Assembly (NCBI GenBank): GCA_020722205.1
Contig: DYLF01000003.1
Coordinates: 3,891-67,890 of the forward strand
Length of the DNA stretch: 64,000 nucleotides
Source of the DNA: Desulfobacca acetoxidans
Lineage (GTDB): Bacteria; Desulfobacterota; Desulfobaccia; Desulfobaccales; 0-14-0-80-60-11
Reading direction: 5' to 3'
Position numbers and translations under genes: made by a program. How positions within the stretch are numbered: the stretch's first letter is position 1; each line of letters starts with the position of its first letter. The notes beneath the pieces were generated by a model. That model was not told the DNA's origin. It saw only the letters and a list, made by a program, of their open reading frames with translations, and ran no database searches. Positions 2,765-36,972 of the stretch are shown piece by piece.

Positions 2765-3772
2765 TCAGTGATCAGTGACCGGCGAGGAGGGAGGCAGAAA
2801 CTCTTTTATTTCCCCCAGCCCTTGGGCCAGGGCAAGCTGGTAGACGGCAAAAGCCAGGGCCAGGTCCTGAATGATGAGGCCGGTGGAATCAAATACGGTT
2901 ATTTCGTTGGGGTGTTCCCGGCCGGGTTTCTTTCCGGCCACTACTTCTCCCAGAGAGGCGTGGATATGTCGGGAAGAGATCTTCCCTTGGGCCAGGGGGA
3001 CGTTGATTTCCCCGGAATGGCTGGCTTGGGCCCAATCGTCCACCACGATTTTGGCTTGCTGGAGGATGGCTGGGTCCAGCTCCTGTTTGCCGGCCGCGTC
3101 GGCGCCGATGGCATTGATATGAACACCGGTCGAGAGCCACTGCTGCTCTACCAAGGGGTAGCGGCTGGGGGTGGTGGTGACCAGGATGTCCATGTCCTGG
3201 ACGGCCTCGGCGGCAGTGGCCACCACTCTGGTCTTGACCTCAAAGTTTGCCGCCACTTCATGAGCCAGGCTCTGAGCCCGTGAGATATTACGGTTAAAGA
3301 TCACCACTTCCTTTATGGGTCGGACTTTCAAAATGGCGGCCACTTGGGTGCGGGCCTGTTGGCCGGCTCCGATGAGGCCCAGGCGGGTGGAGTTTTCCCG
3401 GGAGAGACAGCGGGCTGCGAGGCCGCCGGCGGCGCCGGTGCGGTAATTGGTGATGAGGGTGCCGTCCAGGTCGGCCCATTCCAGGCCGGTGTCGGGATCA
3501 TTGAGCAGGATTTTGGCCATGACGGTGGGCAGTCGGCGGGACGGATTTTGGGGGTGGACATTGACCCACTTCAAGCCGCAGAGGTGGATGTCGTTCAGAA
3601 AGATTTCTCCGTACATGGCGCGGAAGTCCCCTTTGGGCAGGGTAAGATAAGCTTTGGGGGGCATGTTTACGCGGCCTTGCCCATAAGCCTGAAAGGCCTG
3701 TTGGGCGGCGTCCAGTGCCAGATTCATGTCCAAGACCTGGCTGATTTCGGCGGCGGTTAGGATAAGAGTCAT
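2765..3772 (-). CDS. Ornithine cyclodeaminase / mu-crystallin family protein
   Basis: Family-typical N-terminus 'MTLILTAAEISQVLDM..AL..AF' and Rossmann motif 'LGLIGAGQQARTQ'. ATG 3772 is preceded by GGGAGG. Confidence 0.8.
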   Translation of the reverse strand: MTLILTAAEISQVLDMNLALDAAQQAFQAYGQGRVNMPPKAYLTLPKGDFRAMYGEIFLNDIHLCGLKWVNVHPQNPSRRLPTVMAKILLNDPDTGLEWADLDGTLITNYRTGAAGGLAARCLSRENSTRLGLIGAGQQARTQVAAILKVRPIKEVVIFNRNISRAQSLAHEVAANFEVKTRVVATAAEAVQDMDILVTTTPSRYPLVEQQWLSTGVHINAIGADAAGKQELDPAILQQAKIVVDDWAQASHSGEINVPLAQGKISSRHIHASLGEVVAGKKPGREHPNEITVFDSTGLIIQDLALAFAVYQLALAQGLGEIKEFLPPSSPVTDH

Positions 3773-5785: not shown

Positions 5786-6886
5786 ATGCCGACAAGATCG
5801 CGCCGGAAGAAGCAGGATCTGAGCGCTGTTCTCAGAATCTCCACGCTGATCAACTCCTCTCTGGAAATGGAGGCGGTTTTGGATAATGCCATGCACGGGG
5901 TGGAAGAGTTGCTGAACGCCGAGGCCAGCGCCATCTGGGGGATTGATGCCGAGCGGGAGGAACTTTTTTTCCAATTGGCCCGGGGTGAAAGCGCCGATCG
6001 GGTCAAAGAGCTGCGCCTGAAGATGGGCGAAGGGGTTGTGGGTTGGGTGGCCCAAAGGGGTCAACCCCTGATTATCCCGGATACTTCCCTAGATCCCCGT
6101 TTCTCCCAACGGGTGGATGCAGAGTCCGGTTTCAAAACCCGCTCCATTATGTGTGTGCCTTTGAGTCACCAAGGCCACCTGGTGGGAGTCCTGGAGGTCC
6201 TGAACAAGAAAACCGCCGGTGGGTTCACTGATGAGGACCTGGGTTTTCTCACCCTGTTGGGCAATCAGATTGCCACAGCAATGGAGAACGCCAAATCTCA
6301 CGGCCGGATTCAGCGCCTTTTTCAGCAGGTGGTTAATGCACTGTCGGTAACGGCGGAGATGAGGGACCCTTACACTGCCGGCCATCAGCACCGGGTCACT
6401 CAATTGGCCTGCGCCATTGCCCGGGACATGGGTTTGCCGGACGAGCAGGTGGCTGCCATTAACATTGCCGGGCTGCTCCACGACATCGGCAAGATTGTGG
6501 TGCCGGCCGAGATTTTGGCCAAACCCGGGCGGCTCAGCGAGCTGGAGTTGGGGCTGATCAAGACCCACTCCCGCATCGGCTATGAGATCCTGCGGAGCAT
6601 AGAATTTCCCTGGCGCATTGCCGAGATGGTGCGTCAGCACCATGAGATGCTGGACGGCACGGGTTACCCCGACGGTCTGAAGGGGGAGGAGATTTTGTTG
6701 GAGGCGAGAATCATTGCGGTGGCGGACGTGGTGGAGGCAATCTCCTCCCATCGGCCTTACCGGCCCTCCCTGGGGACCGAAACGGCTTTTGAGGAGATCA
6801 GCAGCAAGTCCGGGATAAAGTATGATCCCCAGGTGGTGGAGGTCTGTCTGCGTCTGTTCAAAGAAAAAGGTTTTGCCTTTGCCTGA
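5786..6886 (+). CDS. GAF domain / HD-GYP domain protein (putative c-di-GMP phosphodiesterase)
   Basis: N-terminal GAF-like region ('GVVGWVAQRGQPLIIPD'). C-terminal 'LLHDIGK' and 'HHEMLDGTGYP' form the HD-GYP signature. Confidence 0.85.
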   Translation: MPTRSRRKKQDLSAVLRISTLINSSLEMEAVLDNAMHGVEELLNAEASAIWGIDAEREELFFQLARGESADRVKELRLKMGEGVVGWVAQRGQPLIIPDTSLDPRFSQRVDAESGFKTRSIMCVPLSHQGHLVGVLEVLNKKTAGGFTDEDLGFLTLLGNQIATAMENAKSHGRIQRLFQQVVNALSVTAEMRDPYTAGHQHRVTQLACAIARDMGLPDEQVAAINIAGLLHDIGKIVVPAEILAKPGRLSELELGLIKTHSRIGYEILRSIEFPWRIAEMVRQHHEMLDGTGYPDGLKGEEILLEARIIAVADVVEAISSHRPYRPSLGTETAFEEISSKSGIKYDPQVVEVCLRLFKEKGFAFA

Positions 6887-14126: not shown

Positions 14127-14876
14127 TTAAAGGTTTGATAACCGGTTAATCCTTCGTCCACAATAATTTCCCATGGGACAGGCCTGGCAGTTTGGTTTAC
14201 GACAGTAATCCCGGCCCAACCTCACCAAGGCTGCCTCCAGGTCGACAAAATCATGACCGCCGACGGGTTGGGCCGACCATTGGGCGGTCAGAGTTTTCAG
14301 GGCTGCAACGCCATCGAGGCCGGGGGGCAGTAAAGTCAAATGTTCAGCGGCCAAATGAGCCAAGGGGCTTAAGGGTGGGGTAGCCAGGGGCCATATCCCC
14401 CTGAGTTCCCGTAGGAAAATATTGACTGTGGCCGGGCCGAGGCCAGGCGCCAGAGCCCGCAGCCGGCGCTCCAGGTCATCGTAATCTTTAGAAATTTCGG
14501 CTAATCGTTCCAACTTGCCGCCATATTGTTCCTGCAAGGAGGCCATGACCTTAAGGAGTTTGGTGGCGGTTTTATAATCATAGCGGGTGTATCCGCCCTC
14601 GTCCAAGAGGGTCACCAGGTTATCCCAGCCCTGGGCCAGGATAGCCTCTGGACTGATGATACCATGGGCTGCGAAGACTCGATATGTGCGCGCGGCTATC
14701 TGCCCGGAAATGCGGGCTCCGAATAAGATGGCTGCCAAGAACCACTTTTGCCGTTCTTCCGGGCCGGTTTCCACTCTGATGTCCAACTCGGCGGAAAACC
14801 GACCCTTAACCCGACTGAGCAGTTCAGTAGCAATAGACATGTATTTCCTTAATTCATTATATAATGTTTTAGTCAA
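14127..14876 (-). CDS. Endonuclease III-like (HhH) DNA glycosylase family protein
   Basis: HhH-like 'LRALAPGLGPATVNIFLREL' and a C-terminal Cys cluster 'CRKPNCQACPMGNYC' (FeS-loop-like). Confidence 0.6.
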   Translation of the reverse strand: MTKTLYNELRKYMSIATELLSRVKGRFSAELDIRVETGPEERQKWFLAAILFGARISGQIAARTYRVFAAHGIISPEAILAQGWDNLVTLLDEGGYTRYDYKTATKLLKVMASLQEQYGGKLERLAEISKDYDDLERRLRALAPGLGPATVNIFLRELRGIWPLATPPLSPLAHLAAEHLTLLPPGLDGVAALKTLTAQWSAQPVGGHDFVDLEAALVRLGRDYCRKPNCQACPMGNYCGRRINRLSNL

Positions 14877-14879
14877 ATA

Positions 14880-16589
14880 TTAACGTTCATAACTATTCAA
14901 TTGCAAAGTAATGGGTTTGTTATCAGCACCGGCGCCGTGGAATTGAATGGGGCCAGGGAAGCGATAGCAGTCGCCGGCGGCCCAGCGGGCTCTTTCCTGC
15001 GCCAGAATTTTAAAAGCGGGTGAGTCGAGGTCCACTCTTTGCTTTTGAATTACCAGCTGCAATCGGCCTTGGCGCTCTTCCAGGTGCATCAGGGCCGCCA
15101 GGGGAATGCCGACGGGCTGCCAAGCGGAAACCGGCTGATGCAGGTTGCGGATGGCGGCCATGTAACCTGTGGCCCCGGAAGCCAGGAGGCTTACCGCGGC
15201 AAAGCCCAGGTTATAAGCGTAATCGCAGTCGAACCGGGTGGGAAAGGTGCCGCGGCCTTCATAGCCGAAATAGTGATTCTGAGTGCGGAAGACCCCCTTG
15301 TAAATCCCCTTGGCCCGCTGCTTACGCAGGTAAGTAGCAACCATTTCCAGGAGAATGCGGTCGGTGTTGACTTGGGCATATTGAAAATTGCCATGGCTGT
15401 CTCGGGGCAAAAGGAGGCCTCGCTGAAGGATGGCAGGCAGGCCCAGGAAGACCCGGCTGTCATAGTCCCGCCAGATATCGCTGTTGTCGATCAATTGCAC
15501 CTGGTCCTCGAAGGACAGCTTGTGGAAAGACTCCTCGGGTGCGGCCTCCCGGTTATAGGCGGCGATGATGTAGCTGATCTTGATGATCAGGGCGTTGATT
15601 TCATGAATAAATTCCAGGATGCCCTCGGGGATCAGGATGGTGCCGTAGTTTTTCCCCTGCCGGGCCCGTTCCACCACCACGTCGGCGATGAGCCGCACCA
15701 CGTTATGGATGGTGAATTCCTTTTCTTCAATTTCCTCGCCGATGAGAACTACATTGGGGTGGGTCTGGAAAGACACTTCCATCACAATGTGGGAAGCGCT
15801 GCGGCCCATGAGTCGGTTGAAATGCCAGTACTTGAGGTCTGACTTGCAGTCGGCGTTGAGGTTGGCGATTTCAGTAGCATAGGCCAGACAGGCGGAATGG
15901 AAGCCAAAGGGGATTGGCAGGAGACCTGGAACCTGAAGGTCCCCGTCAATGGTCTTGGGAATGCCGATCACCTGAACGCCGACGTGCCGCAAATTCTCTG
16001 CCAGGAAGGCGGCGTTGGTATTGGAATCATCACCGCCTACCACCACCAGGCCAGACAAGCTCAGAACTTGACAGGTTTCCCGGCAGCTGGCCATCTTCTC
16101 CGGAGTGTCGATCTTTTCCCGACCGGTGCCCAGCATGTGAAAGCCGCTGGAGTTCAGGTGCTCCTTGACCATTGGCAGCGTGACTTCGGTGTAGCGCTTC
16201 ATCATGATCCCGCTGGGGCCGCCCAGGAAGCCGATGAGTTTGCTGTCAGGATGCAGCTTTCTGAGCGCCTCAAACACTCCGGCGATAACATTGTGCCCTC
16301 CCGGTGCCGGCCCGCCAGAAAGAACAATGCCGACCCGTCGGGGGTGCAGATCTTGCGGCCGATCGCCGTCCGGCACAATTTGCAACAAAGTATTTTGGCT
16401 CACAAAGGGAAGGTGCTCTTTCGCCACTTTCAGGACTTCCAAGTCAAAGCCGGGCAGCGGTCTGGTAGAAGATGATTCGACAGCTAGAGCCGGGCACAGC
16501 CGGGGTTGATAAGAGCAGCGCTCGGCTGTGAAAGGCGTCTCAGTTCGCAGGAGTTCATGGAGTTGGGCGGGAGAACGGTCATTTGCCAT
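14880..16589 (-). CDS. pfp: Pyrophosphate-dependent 6-phosphofructokinase (long form)
   Basis: 'RVGIVLSGGPAPGGHNVI', 'VVVGGDDSNTNAA', 'GIPKTIDGDL' and 'MGRSASH'. Confidence 0.85.
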   Translation of the reverse strand: MANDRSPAQLHELLRTETPFTAERCSYQPRLCPALAVESSSTRPLPGFDLEVLKVAKEHLPFVSQNTLLQIVPDGDRPQDLHPRRVGIVLSGGPAPGGHNVIAGVFEALRKLHPDSKLIGFLGGPSGIMMKRYTEVTLPMVKEHLNSSGFHMLGTGREKIDTPEKMASCRETCQVLSLSGLVVVGGDDSNTNAAFLAENLRHVGVQVIGIPKTIDGDLQVPGLLPIPFGFHSACLAYATEIANLNADCKSDLKYWHFNRLMGRSASHIVMEVSFQTHPNVVLIGEEIEEKEFTIHNVVRLIADVVVERARQGKNYGTILIPEGILEFIHEINALIIKISYIIAAYNREAAPEESFHKLSFEDQVQLIDNSDIWRDYDSRVFLGLPAILQRGLLLPRDSHGNFQYAQVNTDRILLEMVATYLRKQRAKGIYKGVFRTQNHYFGYEGRGTFPTRFDCDYAYNLGFAAVSLLASGATGYMAAIRNLHQPVSAWQPVGIPLAALMHLEERQGRLQLVIQKQRVDLDSPAFKILAQERARWAAGDCYRFPGPIQFHGAGADNKPITLQLNSYER

Positions 16590-19461: not shown

Positions 19462-20061
19462 CTACCCGGAGTCTTTCGGCTCGCCTGGAAGGAGTAATTC
19501 ATTCAAAAGATGGCAGGCGAACTCCCGACAGAGTTGCCGAAGGAGGAGGTCTGCCTCCTTAAGGGCCGGAGGCCCTGGATTTACCGGAGAGGAGAGGCTG
19601 AGACGGTCCTGGAAGGCGACGACAATCCGGTCACCCTGAGTGATCGTGCCGGTAATTTCCAAGTGGGCAGAGAGTCTTCCCAGAAAGAAGCGCAGGGCGC
19701 CGCCGCTGATCCCGACGTGCTGAATGACGCCCGATAAGCGGCAGGCGATTTCGTCGTCAGACACTTTTAGGCCGTTGGCCTCCCAGGTTTGAGCCAGCTC
19801 AGCGTGAAAGAGAGGCAGAAAGGTGCCGGCATCAACGCCGCTGGTCTCCTGCAAAAGAAAGGAATTCAGGTGGAAGGAAACCGCTGCCGGTTTAAACCCG
19901 GAAGCTTGAAAGTAGCTGCTCAGGTAACGGCCTGGGAGCAGGGTGACCCCGATCGCCGGGGTGGGGGGCCGGGGCAGGGAACAACCAGCCAGCGCCAGAG
20001 TTAGCATCAGGCCAGAGAGCAGAAAAATTTCTGACTTTCTCTTTCCCTTATTGGAAGCCAT
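19462..20061 (-). CDS. Hypothetical lipoprotein
   Basis: Lipobox 'LALAGC' follows a hydrophobic signal sequence. I recognise no catalytic motifs. Confidence 0.55.
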   Translation of the reverse strand: MASNKGKRKSEIFLLSGLMLTLALAGCSLPRPPTPAIGVTLLPGRYLSSYFQASGFKPAAVSFHLNSFLLQETSGVDAGTFLPLFHAELAQTWEANGLKVSDDEIACRLSGVIQHVGISGGALRFFLGRLSAHLEITGTITQGDRIVVAFQDRLSLSSPVNPGPPALKEADLLLRQLCREFACHLLNELLLPGEPKDSG

Positions 20062-20224
20062 GTTGTAATATATAAATCGTTTTTACCCATCAAGGGCGAT
20101 TACATCCTAACAGCCTTGCTTTAATCGATAACCAACAACAAAAATTTTTTCTGGGTTTTTCCATACCATAACCGAGGGGGAGATTGCAAAGAAATTACCT
20201 TGACTGGCAGAAAAAGGAGGATAT

Positions 20225-22141
20225 ATGACATCCGGTGAGAAGATCACGCTGTCTGTTATCAAGGCTGATGTCGGCGGCTGGGTGGGTCACTGTACGTCGC
20301 ATCCGGAGATGCTGGAACTGGCTGGGAAGCTGGTCAAAGAGGCCGTAAACCGCGGTTTCTTGATTGACGGTCAGGTACTTCATGTGGGCGATGATATAGA
20401 ACTCATCATGACCCACACCCGGGGTGAGGACAACACCGAGGTCCACCAGTTCGCCTGGGACACCTTCATGGAACTCACCGCCTTGGCCAAGCGTTTAAAA
20501 CTCTACGGCGCCGGCCAGGACATGCTGGCCGATTCTTTTTCCGGCAACGTCAAGGGCATGGGGCCAGGGGTAGCCGAGCTGTCTTTTGTGGAACGGAAGA
20601 GTGAACCCGTCGTCATCTTTATGGCGGATAAGACCTCCCCCGGGGCGTGGAACCTTCCCCTGTTCCGTATTTTCGCCGATCCTTTCAACACCGCCGGCCT
20701 GGTTATTGATCCCTCCATGCACCGGGGCTTCCGTTTTCGGGTGTTGGATGTCATGGAACATAAGGAGTGGATTCTATCCTGCCCGGAAGACATGTATGAC
20801 CTTTTGGTATTGGTGGGGGCCACCGGCCGCTATGTCATTGAAAACATCTATCGCAAAAAGGATAACGAGGTGGCGGCGGTAGCCTCGTCCCAGAGGCTCG
20901 GGCTCATAGCCGGACGCTATGTCGGCAAAGACGATCCTGTCATGATAGTTCGCTGCCAATCTGGGTTTCCGGCGGTTGGCGAAGTGCTGGAACCATTTGC
21001 CTTCCCCCATATGGTGGAGGGCTGGATGCGGGGCTCACATCACGGCCCCTTGATGCCGGTGAGTTTCAAGGATGCCCGCCCTATCCGGTTTGACGGGCCG
21101 CCCCGGGTCATTGCCGCTGGCTTCCAGCTCTGCCAGGGCAAGTTCATCGGCCCAGTGGACCTGTTCTCTGATGTGGCCTTCGATGAGGCGAGACGAGAGG
21201 CCAACCGGGTGGCCAATTACATGCGTCGGCACGGCCCCTTTGAACCCCACCGCCTTGGCCTGCACGAAATGGAGTATACCACCCTGCCCCAAGTGATGGC
21301 CTTTATCTTTGAAAAATCCGCCATCCCGCGCCGTGCCGACCTGGAAGAGGAAATTCGCCAGCTTTATCCACATATCCGGGAAGTCAGAGTGGTGGAGCCA
21401 GGCGTCAAGGACTTTGACGCCATTCAAAAGACCATTGCCAGGGAAGCTGCGGTTTATCTGGAGGAAATTGCTCCCCCGGAGGCAAAGATCGGCTTGTCCT
21501 GCGGCAAGACCTTGTATTATGTGATCAACTATCTGGAAGCCGAACGGCTCACGGCGCCGCAACTTTATCCACTCTCCCTGACGCGGATTTTCACCATGCC
21601 GGGATTGACCTCCAACGCCTTGGTGGGGATGATGAGCACCAAATATCCTGATGCCGTGGCTTTTAATCTTCCTTCCATGCCGGTAACCTCCCGGGAGGAG
21701 TATGAAAAGCAGTTGACCGCCAACCCGGCGCTCTTGAAAATTTATCAGGACATCTGGGATGTGGACATCATGCTCCTGGCCATCGGCCACCTGGCTGTGG
21801 ATAAACCAGGGTTCATGGCCCTGGCCGTCCAGGAACTGGGTTTGACCGCCGAACAGTTGGCCAGTAAAGGAGTGGTGGCAGAAATCAACCACACCCCCAT
21901 CAATGCCCAGGGTGAGCCTCTGATCGATAATGAAGATGCCGAGCTGGCAGCGCTGACGCGGCGGGTCATTGGAGTGGGGGCCCTGGAACTCAGAGAGCGC
22001 GCCGCCCGAGCCGATAAGACCTTGATTGCGGTAGCCGGCGGCCTGGAAAAGACCGAGGCCATCCGGGCCTGCTGCAAGGGCAAGTTTTTCAACGTCCTGA
22101 TCACCGACGCTTTCGTGGCCGAGGCGCTAGTACGGAAATGA
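20225..22141 (+). CDS. fbp: Fructose-1,6-bisphosphate aldolase/phosphatase (class V, archaeal type) fused to a SorC/CggR-type sugar-binding domain
   Basis: N-terminal 'KITLSVIKADVGGWVGH' through 'GPFEPHRLGLHEMEYTTLP' (aa 1 to ~362). The C-terminal part carries 'IGLSCGKTL', 'VDIMLLAIG', 'LIAVAGGLEKTEAI' and 'NVLITD' (aa ~395-638). AAGGAGG RBS. Confidence 0.85.
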   Translation: MTSGEKITLSVIKADVGGWVGHCTSHPEMLELAGKLVKEAVNRGFLIDGQVLHVGDDIELIMTHTRGEDNTEVHQFAWDTFMELTALAKRLKLYGAGQDMLADSFSGNVKGMGPGVAELSFVERKSEPVVIFMADKTSPGAWNLPLFRIFADPFNTAGLVIDPSMHRGFRFRVLDVMEHKEWILSCPEDMYDLLVLVGATGRYVIENIYRKKDNEVAAVASSQRLGLIAGRYVGKDDPVMIVRCQSGFPAVGEVLEPFAFPHMVEGWMRGSHHGPLMPVSFKDARPIRFDGPPRVIAAGFQLCQGKFIGPVDLFSDVAFDEARREANRVANYMRRHGPFEPHRLGLHEMEYTTLPQVMAFIFEKSAIPRRADLEEEIRQLYPHIREVRVVEPGVKDFDAIQKTIAREAAVYLEEIAPPEAKIGLSCGKTLYYVINYLEAERLTAPQLYPLSLTRIFTMPGLTSNALVGMMSTKYPDAVAFNLPSMPVTSREEYEKQLTANPALLKIYQDIWDVDIMLLAIGHLAVDKPGFMALAVQELGLTAEQLASKGVVAEINHTPINAQGEPLIDNEDAELAALTRRVIGVGALELRERAARADKTLIAVAGGLEKTEAIRACCKGKFFNVLITDAFVAEALVRK

Positions 22142-22186: not shown

Positions 22187-22222
22187 AGGGGCGGTAGTTG
22201 ATCACCGCCCCTCCTCTTCTTT
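22187..22222 (+). terminator. Rho-independent terminator after fbp
   Basis: 'aggggcgg-tagttgatca-ccgcccct' followed by the pyrimidine/T-rich 'cctcttcttt'. Confidence 0.5.
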
Positions 22223-23522: not shown

Positions 23523-23909
23523 ATGAAAGGGGAGTTCCTGGTCCAGAACCCGCGACCGGATGGCTACCACCTGATGATGGAACTTTACGGTTGCGATCAG
23601 GAAAAGCTCAATTCCCGCAAATTCCTGCACAACACAGTCAAGAGCGCGGTCACCAAGGTGGGACTGACCAACCTAGGGTCCCGCTTTCATCAATTCCAAC
23701 CATACGGGGTCACGGGGTTTACCCTGCTGGCTCAATCTCATATTTCCTTGCATACCTGGCCGGAGTTCGGCTACTTGGTGTTGGACATCTTCACCTGTGG
23801 CGACGCTCAGCAGGCCGATCAACTGGCGGCTCACTGTTTGGAACGATTGCGACCTGAGCGCGTTAACCGACACGTGGTACGCAAGGGCTTCAAGTATCCT
23901 CGCGAATAA
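23523..23909 (+). CDS. speH: S-adenosylmethionine decarboxylase proenzyme (small bacterial/archaeal class)
   Basis: 'GVTGFTLLAQSHISLHTWPEFGYLVLDIFTCG' contains the self-processing Ser region and family motifs. Confidence 0.85.
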   Translation: MKGEFLVQNPRPDGYHLMMELYGCDQEKLNSRKFLHNTVKSAVTKVGLTNLGSRFHQFQPYGVTGFTLLAQSHISLHTWPEFGYLVLDIFTCGDAQQADQLAAHCLERLRPERVNRHVVRKGFKYPRE

Positions 23910-33539: not shown

Positions 33540-34523
33540 ATGTCAACCGATCATTTGGACTTTTCCGACAACACCCTGGCTCAGACCCTATTTGGTGAAC
33601 ACGGCCAGCATCTCCAGATCATCGGTCGCACTCTCGGAGTGAAACTGTCGGCCCGGGGCAACCAGGTGACGGTGACAGGGAGTGCCGATGAGGTGCACTT
33701 GGCCAGGCGGACCTTGACGGAGTTGTATGACTTGGTGCAGGCCGGCTACGGCCTCCATCCGCAGGACGTCCAGTACGCCCTTAAGATCCTGCAGGAAAAA
33801 GAATCAGCCTCGGTCAAAGAATTGTTTCTGGACACTGTCTATATCTCCGCCATGAAGCGGCGGATTTCCCCCAAAAGTCTCAATCAGAAACGCTACATTG
33901 AGGCCATGCGTTCCCATGATCTGGTTTTTGGGATCGGCCCGGCTGGCACCGGCAAGACCTATCTGGCCATGGCTATGGCAGTAGCGGCTCTGATGAACCA
34001 TGAGTTTATCCGCATTGTCCTGGCCCGTCCCGCCGTGGAAGCCGGAGAAAAATTAGGCTTTCTGCCGGGCGACCTTTATGAGAAAGTAAACCCTTATCTG
34101 CGACCCCTCTATGACGCCCTCCATGACATGATGGATTTTGACAAGGCCTCCCGCCTGGTGCAACGGGGGGTGGTGGAGGTAGCTCCCTTGGCCTTCATGC
34201 GAGGCCGGACGCTGAATGACTCTTTCGTGATCCTGGACGAAGCTCAGAACACCACCTCCGAGCAGATGCTGATGTTCCTGACCCGTTTAGGATTTGGTGC
34301 CAAGGCGGTAATCACTGGTGATGTAACCCAGATTGACCTGCCTGCCGGCGTCACTTCCGGGTTGGTGGAGGCCCGGCAGCTCTTGTCCGGGGTGGAAGGT
34401 ATTGCTTTTGTTTACTTTACTGAGAGGGACGTGGTGCGCCATCCCCTGGTCCAGGATATTATCCGGGCCTATGAAGGCCGCCGCACCCGCTTGGATGTAA
34501 TCAACCGCGAACATCATGACTGA
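33540..34523 (+). CDS. phoH: PhoH-like ATPase (YbeZ type)
   Basis: Walker A '[13 protein letters not shown]', 'LGFLPGD' and 'FVILDEAQN'. Confidence 0.9.
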
Positions 34524-36972
34524 GAAAGACCCTCAGGAAAAAATCGGCCATATATTCGGTTACGGGCGCTTTTGGCGTGGCCGCCGGCTGCGCGGCTGGC
34601 CCTGTGACCCGAAACACTGGTTTAAAGATTATCAGAATCTTGGTAAAGTTATCCTGCTGCTTGGTCTTTCCCTCTGCATTGCTCTGATTCTTACCCCCCA
34701 ACCCCAAAAATTGTGGGAGAACTACAACGTCGGGGATATTGCCCGCCACACCGTCAGAGCCACGACTGACCTGTTGGTGGAGGACGTGGAAACTTCCAGA
34801 CAGCGGCAAAAAGAACTTCTTGCCCAGATACCACCAGTCTTTGACCTGGATGAAGAAGCCTTCCGCCGGGTGCAGGAGCGTCTTGGTAAAGCCCTGACTT
34901 TCATGCGCCAGCAATATCAGGAGCTGGTTGCCAAGACATCTCCGGCAGGAGCCCCGGATGAACCGACAAAAAAGCAAAAGCCCAAATTTTCCGTGCTTTA
35001 TAAAGAGCTGTTAAAGCAGAAACCGGAGTTTGACAGGTTATTAGGAGTCAGTTTACCCAACTCCACCTTCTACCTGTTGGCCAAAGCCGAGTTTTCCCCC
35101 ACTCACGAGCTGTTGGTGAACCAGGTCCTGAGACAGTTTTTCCAGCGTGGAGTGATCAGCAGTTCCATTCTCCCCGGCCTGGAGGGGCGGCAGATCATGC
35201 TCCGGCAGTTGCCCTCCCGCCAGGAGCAGAAGCTCTCCCCACCATATCCCTTTACCAGCCTGGAAGAAATCCGCCAGCCAATAGCCGCATACTGTCGGGA
35301 GGTGGCCGCGGATTTTTCCCCCACTGACCGCTGGCTGGTATGCGACATGATCCAGTATCTCATGGTTCCCAACGTCTCTCCCAATGTAGCGGAAACTCAG
35401 GAGCGCCAAAGGGCCAGTCTGAGGGAGTTGAAGGCCACATATTTCAAGGTCAGGAAAGGGGAAGCCATCGTACGCCAGGGGGAGCGGGTAACCCCCCTCA
35501 CGCTGGCCAAACTCAAGGCTCAAAGACTGAACTCCCCCAAAAATCAGGGTATCCTCATCTTCCTGGGGATTTTCGTCAGCGTCAGCCTGTTGTTGGGATT
35601 GGCCTATTATCTAACCACGCAGACCTTCCGTCGCAACCCCCTCCGACTCCGGGACCTCGCCTTTCTGGCGGTATTGCTTCTGGTCTGCACCCTCCTCAAT
35701 CAAGGATTTGTTAAGATCGGCGCGTACCTGTCCCTGGCTTTTCCGGAAGTGGGGCAAAACCTGGTGTACGCTCATCCCATCGGGCTTTTCGCCATATTTG
35801 TCGCCATGTTTCTTGGTCTGGAGACCAGCTTGGCCTTTTCTTTCCTGGCCGCCACTCTCTCCGTTTTTCCGTTGGAGAAGCCTTTCCCTCTCTTTTTATA
35901 TTACGTGACTGCCTGTTTTACCGGCGTCTGGTGGGTCAAGCGCTTTCGTCAACGCAGCGCCCTGCTCATCACTGGGTTATTCATCTCTCTGATCAATCTT
36001 TTCATGCTCACGGCGCTCAAATTCTTGGAGTATCCTTTTACCGCCCTGGATTTTCTGACTGGGCAGGCTTTGGCCCTAAGCGGCGGTCTGATCACCGGCA
36101 TCTTGGCTCTGGGTCTAACACCAGTAATCGAAACCAGCTTCGGCTACGCCTCCAATTTCCGCTTACAGGAATTGCTCAACCTTGATCAGCCGGTCCTGAG
36201 AGAATTAATGCTGGTGGCCCCAGGGACCTACCATCATTCTCTGGTGGTGGGGCAAATGGTGGAAGCTGCCGCCGAGGCCATCGGGGCCAACCCTTTGTTG
36301 GCCAAAGCCGCGGCATATTACCACGACATTGGGAAAATCAAGAAACCGGCTTATTTTGTGGAAAACCAGTTCGGAGGGGAGAACAAACATGAAAAACTTG
36401 CCCCTTCCATGAGCAGCCTCATTTTGATCTCTCACATCAAAGACGGAGTGGAGCTGGCTCACAAACATAAACTGGGAGACCGCATCATCGACATCATTCA
36501 ACAGCACCATGGCCGATGCCTCATCAGTTATTTTTATCACAAGGCCAAGCAGCAGGCTGCCAACCCCAACCTGATAAACTTTGACGACTATCGCTACCCT
36601 GGTCCACGGCCCCAAACTAAAGAGGCAGGACTGGTGCTGATTGCCGATCAGGTGGAAGCTGCTTCCAAGACTCTGGATGAACCCACGCCGGCCCGCATCC
36701 AGGGACTGGTACAGAAGATCATCAACAACGCTTTTGCCGACGGCCAGTTGGACGAATGCGAGCTTACTCTCCGGGAATTACACCTCATCGCCAAAAGCTG
36801 CAACAAAATCCTGAGCGGTATCTTCCACCAGCGCATCAGTTACCCCACACCCCCGGACAAGAAAAAGACCAATGACGATCTGGATAAGCAACCGTCAAAG
36901 AAAAGTAACGGTAAATTTAGAGACCCTCAGGAGAAAAACCGGGAAGATCTTAAGCGCCTTGGACAGGAGTGA
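34516..36972 (+). CDS. 7TM-receptor / HD-domain phosphohydrolase (PgpH/YqfF-like)
   Basis: Extracytoplasmic N-terminal domain, about 7 TM helices, then HD domain motifs 'HHSLVVGQM' and 'YYHDIGK'. It overlaps phoH by 8 nt. Confidence 0.85.
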   Translation: MTEKDPQEKIGHIFGYGRFWRGRRLRGWPCDPKHWFKDYQNLGKVILLLGLSLCIALILTPQPQKLWENYNVGDIARHTVRATTDLLVEDVETSRQRQKELLAQIPPVFDLDEEAFRRVQERLGKALTFMRQQYQELVAKTSPAGAPDEPTKKQKPKFSVLYKELLKQKPEFDRLLGVSLPNSTFYLLAKAEFSPTHELLVNQVLRQFFQRGVISSSILPGLEGRQIMLRQLPSRQEQKLSPPYPFTSLEEIRQPIAAYCREVAADFSPTDRWLVCDMIQYLMVPNVSPNVAETQERQRASLRELKATYFKVRKGEAIVRQGERVTPLTLAKLKAQRLNSPKNQGILIFLGIFVSVSLLLGLAYYLTTQTFRRNPLRLRDLAFLAVLLLVCTLLNQGFVKIGAYLSLAFPEVGQNLVYAHPIGLFAIFVAMFLGLETSLAFSFLAATLSVFPLEKPFPLFLYYVTACFTGVWWVKRFRQRSALLITGLFISLINLFMLTALKFLEYPFTALDFLTGQALALSGGLITGILALGLTPVIETSFGYASNFRLQELLNLDQPVLRELMLVAPGTYHHSLVVGQMVEAAAEAIGANPLLAKAAAYYHDIGKIKKPAYFVENQFGGENKHEKLAPSMSSLILISHIKDGVELAHKHKLGDRIIDIIQQHHGRCLISYFYHKAKQQAANPNLINFDDYRYPGPRPQTKEAGLVLIADQVEAASKTLDEPTPARIQGLVQKIINNAFADGQLDECELTLRELHLIAKSCNKILSGIFHQRISYPTPPDKKKTNDDLDKQPSKKSNGKFRDPQEKNREDLKRLGQE

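Follow-up and report, generated by a model that had tools for sequence, protein, structure and literature searches.

The 64,000-nt stretch of Desulfobacca acetoxidans DNA analyzed in this study (assembly GCA_020722205.1, contig DYLF01000003.1, positions 3,891 to 67,890 of the forward strand; in the following referred to as the window) contains a gene whose product unites, in one polypeptide, a complete fructose-1,6-bisphosphate (FBP) aldolase/phosphatase (FBPA/P) and a SorC-type effector-binding domain (EBD) lacking the helix-turn-helix (HTH) DNA-binding domain. This fusion is fixed across a whole clade and is no one-off. Judged from sequence, it is probably an allosteric, clade-wide form of FBPA/P for which no published characterization was found. 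Allosteric, metabolite-gated control of the enzyme appears to be the most likely function of the appended domain, with a probability of roughly 0.55, and regulation would thus probably act on the enzyme itself and no longer on its gene.

FBPA/P is considered to be an ancient enzyme that serves gluconeogenesis in one direction only. To our knowledge, its control has been described mainly at the transcriptional level, and we know of no dedicated allosteric domain in the characterized enzymes. An earlier note on this DNA, made from the sequence alone, had likewise known of no characterized fusion of this kind, and no description was found in the full-text literature, most subscription journals being outside its coverage.

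Architecture and inheritance of the fusion protein

The fusion gene (window positions 20225-22141, + strand) is a single unbroken open reading frame (ORF) of 638 codons plus stop, starting with ATG, just as the earlier note had described it. Its product is 100% identical to a protein in an NCBI-derived collection (P0001). A Shine-Dalgarno sequence AGGAGG, read from the sequence, is located 4 nt 5′ of the ATG at 20225 (20215-20220, +), and a terminator-like hairpin with a 9-bp stem, 7 GC pairs and a T-rich tail (22187-22212, +; consensus scan only) starts 46 nt past the stop codon.

The FBPA/P domain comprises residues 6-361 (20240-21307, +). It matches Pfam FBPase_3 (PF01950) with 605 bits against a cutoff of 25 (E=6.3e-182), covering profile positions 1-356 of 361, and also passes the NCBIfam equivalog FBP_aldo_phos (NF041126; 593 bits, cutoff 520), in agreement with the previous assignment of residues 1 to ~362 to a complete enzyme. 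The alignment to Sulfolobus tokodaii ST0318 (3R1M/1UMG) is gap-free with an offset of +3 (E=1.5e-153). Thereby, Y229, K232 and Y348 of the S. tokodaii enzyme correspond to Y232 and K235 in the motif YVGKDDP and to Y351 in the motif EMEYTTLP of the fusion. These three residues as well as the FBPA/P metal-binding motifs DDxxL, ADKT and GKDDP are invariant in 19 fusions. Crystal structures of FBPA/P from 2011 reportedly revealed a lysine that forms a Schiff base, catalytic tyrosines, and mobile loops by which the site is changed between its aldolase and phosphatase states. We take K235 to be the Schiff-base lysine and Y232 and Y351 to be the catalytic tyrosines; the PDB titles "aldolase form" and "Y229F variant with DHAP" (3T2G; DHAP, dihydroxyacetone phosphate) are consistent with these roles. 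Each sequence-level feature of FBPA/P that was tested was found, which assigns the enzyme half to this family, and it is predicted to be catalytically intact. Homology to the enzyme stops at about residue 361. Solved stand-alone enzymes do not end about there, as the earlier note had stated, but run ~25 aa past the shared core (385 aa in S. tokodaii), and in the fusion this ~25-residue tail is replaced.

The second domain comprises residues 370-636 (21332-22132, +) and matches the Pfam family Sugar-bind (PF04198) with 93.7 bits against a cutoff of 27 (E=1.4e-26). The C-terminal 276 aa alone also match this family (E=1.3e-27), so that the lack of a significant match, which according to the earlier note would have refuted its claim, did not occur. 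The NCBIfam models DeoR and LsrR have a weak likeness to the C-terminal part. No HTH family was matched by the fusion protein in the Pfam and NCBIfam scans, which agrees with the absence of a DNA-binding domain claimed before. As this domain is absent, the fusion protein is not a SorC regulator and is unable to act as a SorC repressor; of such a regulator, it bears the sensor domain only. In the AlphaFold2 model, residues 370-638 reach pLDDT values (per-residue confidence) of ~85-95, with low pLDDT in the enzyme half. A Foldseek search against the PDB listed, after the FBPA/P entries, 38 consecutive SorC-family effector domains on ranks 8-45 (E<=4e-12). Among these, DeoR of Bacillus subtilis was the best match with a template modeling (TM) score of 0.85, while SorC, LsrR and CggR reached 0.78-0.82. 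The first NagB-superfamily enzyme in the list was the 6-phosphogluconolactonase 3LWD (E=3.9e-3, TM 0.40). On the sequence level, the closest solved relatives were 2R5F (1e-9) and DeoR (2e-6), and CggR gave an E-value of 0.13 (phmmer). Because DeoR is the best match in Foldseek and the E-value of CggR is only 0.13, the sensor is regarded as a generic SorC effector domain and not as a CggR-like one. The former assignment to a CggR/SorC-type domain at residues ~395-638 can therefore be kept for the SorC family in general, whereas the likeness to CggR in particular and the start at ~395 instead of ~370 cannot. Also, the CggR motifs quoted for comparison were wrong; in place of GVGWGRTL, CggR reads VAVTGGTTIE. 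The CggR sequence used here and for contact mapping was verified against PDB 8R3G (100% identity).

SorC effector domains descend from NagB-type enzymes (PMC11229326) and accommodate phosphosugars where the NagB active site used to be, whereupon their conformation and oligomer contacts change, namely at the pocket loop and the EBD-EBD interface (PMC11229326, PMC2943609). For CggR, FBP and DHAP are both true effectors with KD values of ~3 μM each (PMC11229326), and T151, T152, R175, R250 and E269 contact FBP (PMC6920703), with T152 at the 6-phosphate (PMC9351453). The core of this pocket is conserved in the fusions: T152, E269 and K310 (of the AGGxxK motif) of CggR correspond to T429, E553 and K609, each found in 19/19 fusions and likewise invariant in SorC relatives, with K609 present in all of these. 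At the position of T151, a basic residue is present instead (K/R428). The putative phosphosugar site of the fusion consists of G427-K428-T429, S451-L-T453, E553-I-N555 and A604-G-G-x-x-K609.

Between both domains, whose Pfam matches end at residue 361 and begin at residue 370, the junction (residues 355-375; 21287-21349, +) reads PQVMAFIFEKSAIPRRADLEE. It directly follows the Tyr351 segment and is under stronger constraint than any other part of the protein. The connector, PQVMAFIFEKSAIPRR, starts ~10 residues past Tyr351, is near-invariant and of constant length within Desulfobaccales, and bears a 2-residue insertion in the Desulfofervidus clade. The ratio of nonsynonymous to synonymous substitutions (dN/dS), calculated according to Nei-Gojobori for ~400 locus pairs, was lowest for residues 355-375 (0.041), compared to 0.116 for the enzyme and 0.201 for the sensor domain. 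Hence, purifying selection is seen on the sensor and, most strongly, on the connector.

In a whole-protein search, at least 120 protein clusters (90% identity) of ~637 aa with both Pfam domains and 60-100% identity were found, and a scan of GTDB with one genome per species yielded 35 fusion loci. The cluster members include UniRef entries named Desulfobacca acetoxidans and metagenome-assembled genomes (MAGs) labelled Desulfobaccales, Thermodesulfobacteriota and Desulfobacteraceae; the carriers belong to Desulfobaccales, Ca. Desulfofervidus and relatives. Thirty of the 35 loci are single stop-free ORFs, three are cut by contig ends, and two are frameshifted inside a domain. No stop or frameshift was found at the junction in any of the 35 loci, so that the split into two genes near 21300-21400, named in advance as the outcome that would speak against a fusion, did not occur.

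In public databases, the proteins are already annotated as "fructose-1,6-bisphosphate aldolase/phosphatase", or they are cut to "sugar-binding domain-containing protein". The latter applies to the NCBI calls P0121, P0143, P0146, P0151 and P0344, which cover only the C-terminal ~250-280 aa and are named as such or as "hypothetical protein"; one truncated call stems from Ca. Desulfofervidus auxilii, with a C-domain 52% identical. Such truncation hides the enzyme half. Four of these calls (P0121, P0143, P0146, P0151) were considered as stand-alone C-domain genes resulting from a split and were rejected, as the DNA of the loci L001 and L002 contains intact fusion ORFs of 664 codons (L001, 3437-5431) and 669 codons (L002, 3840-5849) whose enzyme half was left uncalled in the annotation.

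These annotations covering the C-terminal half alone (P0121, P0151, P0344 in some MAGs) could also be taken to mean that a sequencing or assembly error had turned two adjacent genes into one, or that the C-domain is made from the internal Met358. In the DNA of the same loci, however, one unbroken fusion ORF is present, all 35 independent genomes are in frame across the junction, and purifying selection peaks there. Separate translation from Met358 was rejected, as no Shine-Dalgarno sequence was found before this codon in any of 38 loci. At the sequence level, the artefact explanation is thereby refuted, and its remaining probability is negligible.

The pairwise distances of enzyme and sensor domains are closely correlated (r=0.947; Mantel 0/5000). 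The three clades obtained with one domain are also those obtained with the other, and the sensor evolves ~1.7 times faster than the enzyme domain. Because of this correlation and the shared clades, the data indicate one ancient fusion which has since been inherited as a unit. PF01950 was not seen below ~52% identity and thus no second fusion lineage, in C-domain searches that under-reported full-length fusions; likewise, a 50%-identity representative library listed no full-length fusions and hence is no gauge of fusion breadth. A candidate for a second FBPase fusion lineage, P0214 (635 aa, C-terminal match with 31% identity), was rejected, as it is composed of HD-CE and Sugar-bind.

Regulators adjoining FBPase_3 genes as closest relatives of the sensor

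Searches with a profile of the fusion C-domain gave three tiers of matches. On top was the fusion family (250-494 bits), followed by ~35 clusters of HTH-bearing SorC regulators with 36-43% identity (186-236 bits), in the following called sister regulators, and finally by generic SorC/DeoR proteins with at most 74 bits. The genomic contexts of six sister regulators were inspected (P0385, P0370, P0369 on two contigs, P0365, P0386, P0388). In 7/7 contigs including the respective flank, the regulator divergently adjoins an FBPase_3 gene (481-503 aa), and this adjacency holds although the genes on the other side of the regulators differ. The divergent FBPase_3 genes paired with a SorC-type regulator are located, all on the - strand, at 5286-6737 in L041, 5441-6892 in L042, 4083-5528 in L043, 4297-5748 in L044 and 880-2391 in L045. 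A further sister regulator, P0156, shows the same downstream synteny, and its contig breaks off at the place expected for the FBPase gene; the more distant relative P0161 (186 bits) is found in a mobile-element-like context without FBPase. No description of the regulator/FBPase_3 pairing was found in the full-text literature with the coverage given above. As an observation on one of these loci, the gene for DnaE (DNA polymerase III alpha) beside the sister regulator in L045 (4529-9274, -) carries an intein with a LAGLIDADG endonuclease, the protein thereby comprising 1581 aa compared to ~1157 aa in the other sister loci.

In an alignment, 43 positions that are invariant in 19 fusions were also at least 90% conserved in 31 sister regulators, including T429, YPL448-450, KY473-474, PGF528-530, EIN553-555, GGxxK605-609, N623, T627 and D628. 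The sister regulators possess ~56 extra N-terminal residues, i.e. the HTH domain, exactly where the enzyme attaches in the fusion. Since the closest relatives of the fused domain are HTH-bearing SorC regulators located beside FBPase_3 genes, we derive it, on this comparative evidence, from a regulator with a link to the FBPase_3 family, whose effector domain it represents and whose DNA-binding domain has given way to the enzyme. One SorC subfamily thus appears tied to the FBPase_3 family in a Rosetta-stone relation, by adjacency in one lineage and by fusion in another, and a regulatory function of the fused sensor gains support because its nearest relatives pair with FBPase_3 genes.

This origin also bears on two other explanations. 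Given that SorC effector domains derive from NagB-type enzymes, that the DeoR effector domain forms a covalent adduct with its ligand (PMC11229326), and that the pocket residues are invariant, the C-domain might itself be catalytic and contribute a third, isomerase- or deaminase-type phosphosugar activity inherited from NagB, which would result in a trifunctional gluconeogenic enzyme. We consider this very unlikely: ranks 8-45 in Foldseek are all effector domains of regulators, with NagB-superfamily enzymes appearing only at ~4e-3 and TM 0.40, the position of the DeoR lysine is S/T/N in the fusions, and the proteins most closely related to the domain are true HTH regulators, in which the 43 positions are conserved as well. 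Alternatively, the protein might serve as a "trigger enzyme" whose EBD half associates with its counterpart in an independently encoded SorC regulator possessing an HTH and couples enzyme occupancy to transcription. SorC regulators do assemble through EBD-EBD contacts (PMC11229326), and the fused domain is regulator-derived, but the fusion has no HTH and no SorC regulator was found within the 64-kb window, so that this explanation is given an even smaller chance.

Three positions switch systematically: where the regulators have Y/F at 428, E at 453 and A at 481, the fusions have K/R, T and N, respectively. Position 453 is part of the loop equivalent to CggR 177-185, which moves on FBP binding. 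The switches at the pocket periphery, 428 and 453, suggest a retuned charge preference for the ligand. Compared to the sister regulators, the periphery has shifted in charge by about +2, which hints, speculatively, at a ligand with more negative charge, e.g. a bisphosphate.

Proposed control of the enzyme and points against it

For ligand binding and the nature of the ligand, as well as for the path of an allosteric effect and its direction, we infer the following course of events. Sister-type regulators would presumably control the adjoining FBPase_3 gene at the transcriptional level. In an ancestor of Desulfobaccales, Ca. Desulfofervidus and relatives, the enzyme would have taken the place of the ~56-aa DNA-binding domain of such a regulator. 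The EBD would bind a phosphorylated metabolite of the FBP node at the NagB-type pocket formed by T429, E553 and K609, candidates being FBP, DHAP or glyceraldehyde 3-phosphate (GAP), and fructose 6-phosphate or glucose 6-phosphate (F6P/G6P). The ligand would then move the S451-T453 loop, equivalent to CggR 177-185, and the EBD dimer interface. This change could be transmitted via the rigid connector, via EBD pairing between neighboring subunits, or via both, to the C-terminal segment bearing Tyr351, which in the 2011 crystal structures is reportedly among the mobile parts that switch the active site between aldolase and phosphatase states. FBPA/P is expected to be a homo-octamer. As the outcome, gluconeogenic flux would be gated by a metabolite at the enzyme level, which would be useful next to a reversible pyrophosphate (PPi)-dependent phosphofructokinase (PFK). 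In a more specific form, to which we give somewhat less than even odds, an enzyme would have captured the sensor of a transcription factor regulating its own family, so that transcriptional control of gluconeogenesis became direct allostery, and a bisphosphate such as FBP would gate the aldolase/phosphatase active-site switch through the connector and the Tyr351 segment; the shift of the pocket to positive charge compared to the sister regulators would fit such a ligand.

Two other explanations do without allosteric signaling. The appended domain could be a structural, oligomerization or stability module that dimerizes between neighboring subunits, with the ligand as a stabilizing cofactor. 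SorC EBDs do dimerize, phosphosugars stabilize CggR against aggregation (PMC2943609), the connector is rigid and conserved, and some members stem from thermophilic lineages, e.g. Ca. Desulfofervidus. On the other hand, the invariance of T429, E553 and K609 together with the retuned positions 428 and 453 exceeds the needs of a pure scaffold, stand-alone archaeal FBPA/Ps are stable without an appended domain, and the descent from a regulator paired with FBPase_3 points to signaling. Such a module is thus an unlikely, though the strongest, competitor. Still somewhat less probable is metabolite capture or channeling, in which the C-domain would raise the local level of triose phosphate or FBP, or shield labile triose phosphates. 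The CggR EBD binds DHAP and FBP with a KD of ~3 μM (PMC11229326), each active site of the fusion is matched by one binding site, and the core of the pocket is conserved; tight binding, however, would sequester a substrate instead of delivering it, and the strong constraint on the connector better fits mechanical coupling.

Several points weigh against metabolite-gated allosteric control, or against FBP as the metabolite. The AlphaFold2 full-length single-chain model has a predicted TM score (pTM) of 0.49, so the inter-domain geometry is not readable from it. Within the pocket, not all of the published FBP contacts of CggR are found: R175, which aligns with the lysine of the DeoR motif QLKGG, is replaced by S/T/N451 with loss of the basic residue, and R250 falls in an indel region and is not alignable. 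Because of these two positions, FBP is one candidate ligand among several. The Schiff-base lysine of DeoR, which we take to be Lys141 in QLKGG, corresponds to S451 in YPLSLT and is not kept either. In sum, the sensor is neither CggR-like nor DeoR-like at its specificity residues and has retained a generic phosphosugar pocket with an altered specificity shell. Furthermore, the FBPase_3 proteins neighboring the sister regulators (481-503 aa) are only 31% identical to the window enzyme and contain large insertions, with ADKT and GKDDPV kept; therefore, adjacency ties the regulator subfamily to the enzyme family and not to this exact enzyme. Finally, a conserved operator was not demonstrated in the regulator/FBPase_3 intergenic regions. 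A direct repeat with 19-nt spacing is present in two of them, with two copies of AATTTYTTGCAA in L041 (6883-6913) and two copies of TCAWGAAATTTTT in L044 (5877-5908), and may represent a SorC-type operator. It was not found in the three remaining intergenic regions, where the start codons called for the regulators may be wrong.

If a built-in sensor is indeed present throughout the clade, FBP-node flux would be gated post-translationally in acetate-oxidizing and syntrophic sulfate reducers with a reversible PPi-PFK. In that case, a dedicated allosteric domain would have been found in an FBPA/P for the first time, and the fusion would show how a regulator is rewired to an allosteric domain in nature. 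The separate regulator and the fused sensor would form a clean natural pair for studying how an effector domain becomes an allosteric module. Also, the CggR effector domain already underlies FBP biosensors (PMC9351453, PMC6920703), and this toolkit could be extended by a relative of that domain whose pocket is different.

Genomic surroundings and comparison with known systems

A PPi-PFK gene, to which the earlier note had drawn attention, is indeed encoded 3.6 kb from the fusion gene (14880-16589, -), with 601.8 bits for the TIGR02477 PFKA_PPi equivalog (cutoff 587.95) and a match to Pfam PFK. With it, both directions of the FBP node are present in the organism. The two genes are on opposite strands and do not form one operon, and no other FBP-node gene besides PPi-PFK was found in the 64-kb window. 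An ORF of 249 aa without Pfam or NCBIfam match (14127-14876, -) is located 3 nt downstream of the PPi-PFK gene on the same strand and is probably co-transcribed with it.

The neighbors of the fusion gene, hisB, a lipoprotein gene, a TrkA-type K+ channel gene and speH, are unrelated to the FBP node. The lipoprotein-like ORF (199 aa, predicted; 19462-20061, -) has no family match and is located upstream of the fusion gene in divergent orientation. In L001, a homologue is found at the same place (2771-3382), and the window and L001 thus share synteny over hisB, the lipoprotein-like ORF, the fusion gene and the K+ channel gene. Genes for polyamine metabolism are scattered over the window: a separate AdoMet decarboxylase of the speH type is encoded at 23523-23909 (+), and a 755-aa protein of unusual size (298-2565, +) contains a spermidine-synthase domain only in its middle part (residues 289-410). 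Two HD-domain signaling proteins, a GAF-HD protein (HD_5; 5786-6886, +) and a 7TM receptor with intracellular HD hydrolase (34516-36972, +), are unlinked to the fusion.

PF04198 domains without HTH were also found C-terminal to other partners, namely caspase (P0242, P0243, P0306, P0317), SIR2_2 (P0256) and HD-CE (P0214), and to N-termini without a family label in P0227, P0252, P0313 and P0325. The proteins combining caspase, SIR2 or HD-CE with Sugar-bind look like the effector-plus-sensor proteins of defence systems. PF04198 may thus be a portable small-molecule sensor that is used more widely than its label as a transcription regulator implies. The caspase-, SIR2- and HD-CE-Sugar-bind proteins (P0242, P0256, P0214) resemble the fusion described here in bearing the same sensor C-terminal to an enzymatic domain; they differ from it in their partner enzymes, which are unrelated, and their sensors are only 26-31% identical to the domain in the window.

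Compared with characterized FBPA/Ps of the archaeal, bifunctional type, also known as class V FBPases (ST0318, PDB 1UMG/3R1M; Thermoproteus neutrophilus, PDB 3T2B-3T2G), the N-terminal 361 residues of the fusion are alike, with ~60% identity in the Foldseek matches. Those enzymes are single-domain proteins of ~360-385 aa, whereas the fusion bears a 270-aa ligand-binding domain in place of a short C-terminal tail. With the SorC-family regulators DeoR, CggR, SorC of Klebsiella pneumoniae and LsrR of Escherichia coli, the fusion shares the PF04198 double-Rossmann, NagB-like fold (TM 0.78-0.85) as well as the G-x-T phosphate loop, the acidic residue (E553) and the AGGxxK lysine; unlike them, it has no DNA-binding domain. 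Closest to the fused domain is the sister SorC subfamily (P0365-P0393, P0156, P0385; loci L041-L045), which shares the motifs YPL, KY, PGF, EIN and NxLITD with it and differs in keeping the ~56-aa HTH, in being encoded by separate genes, and in having Y/F428, E453 and A481.

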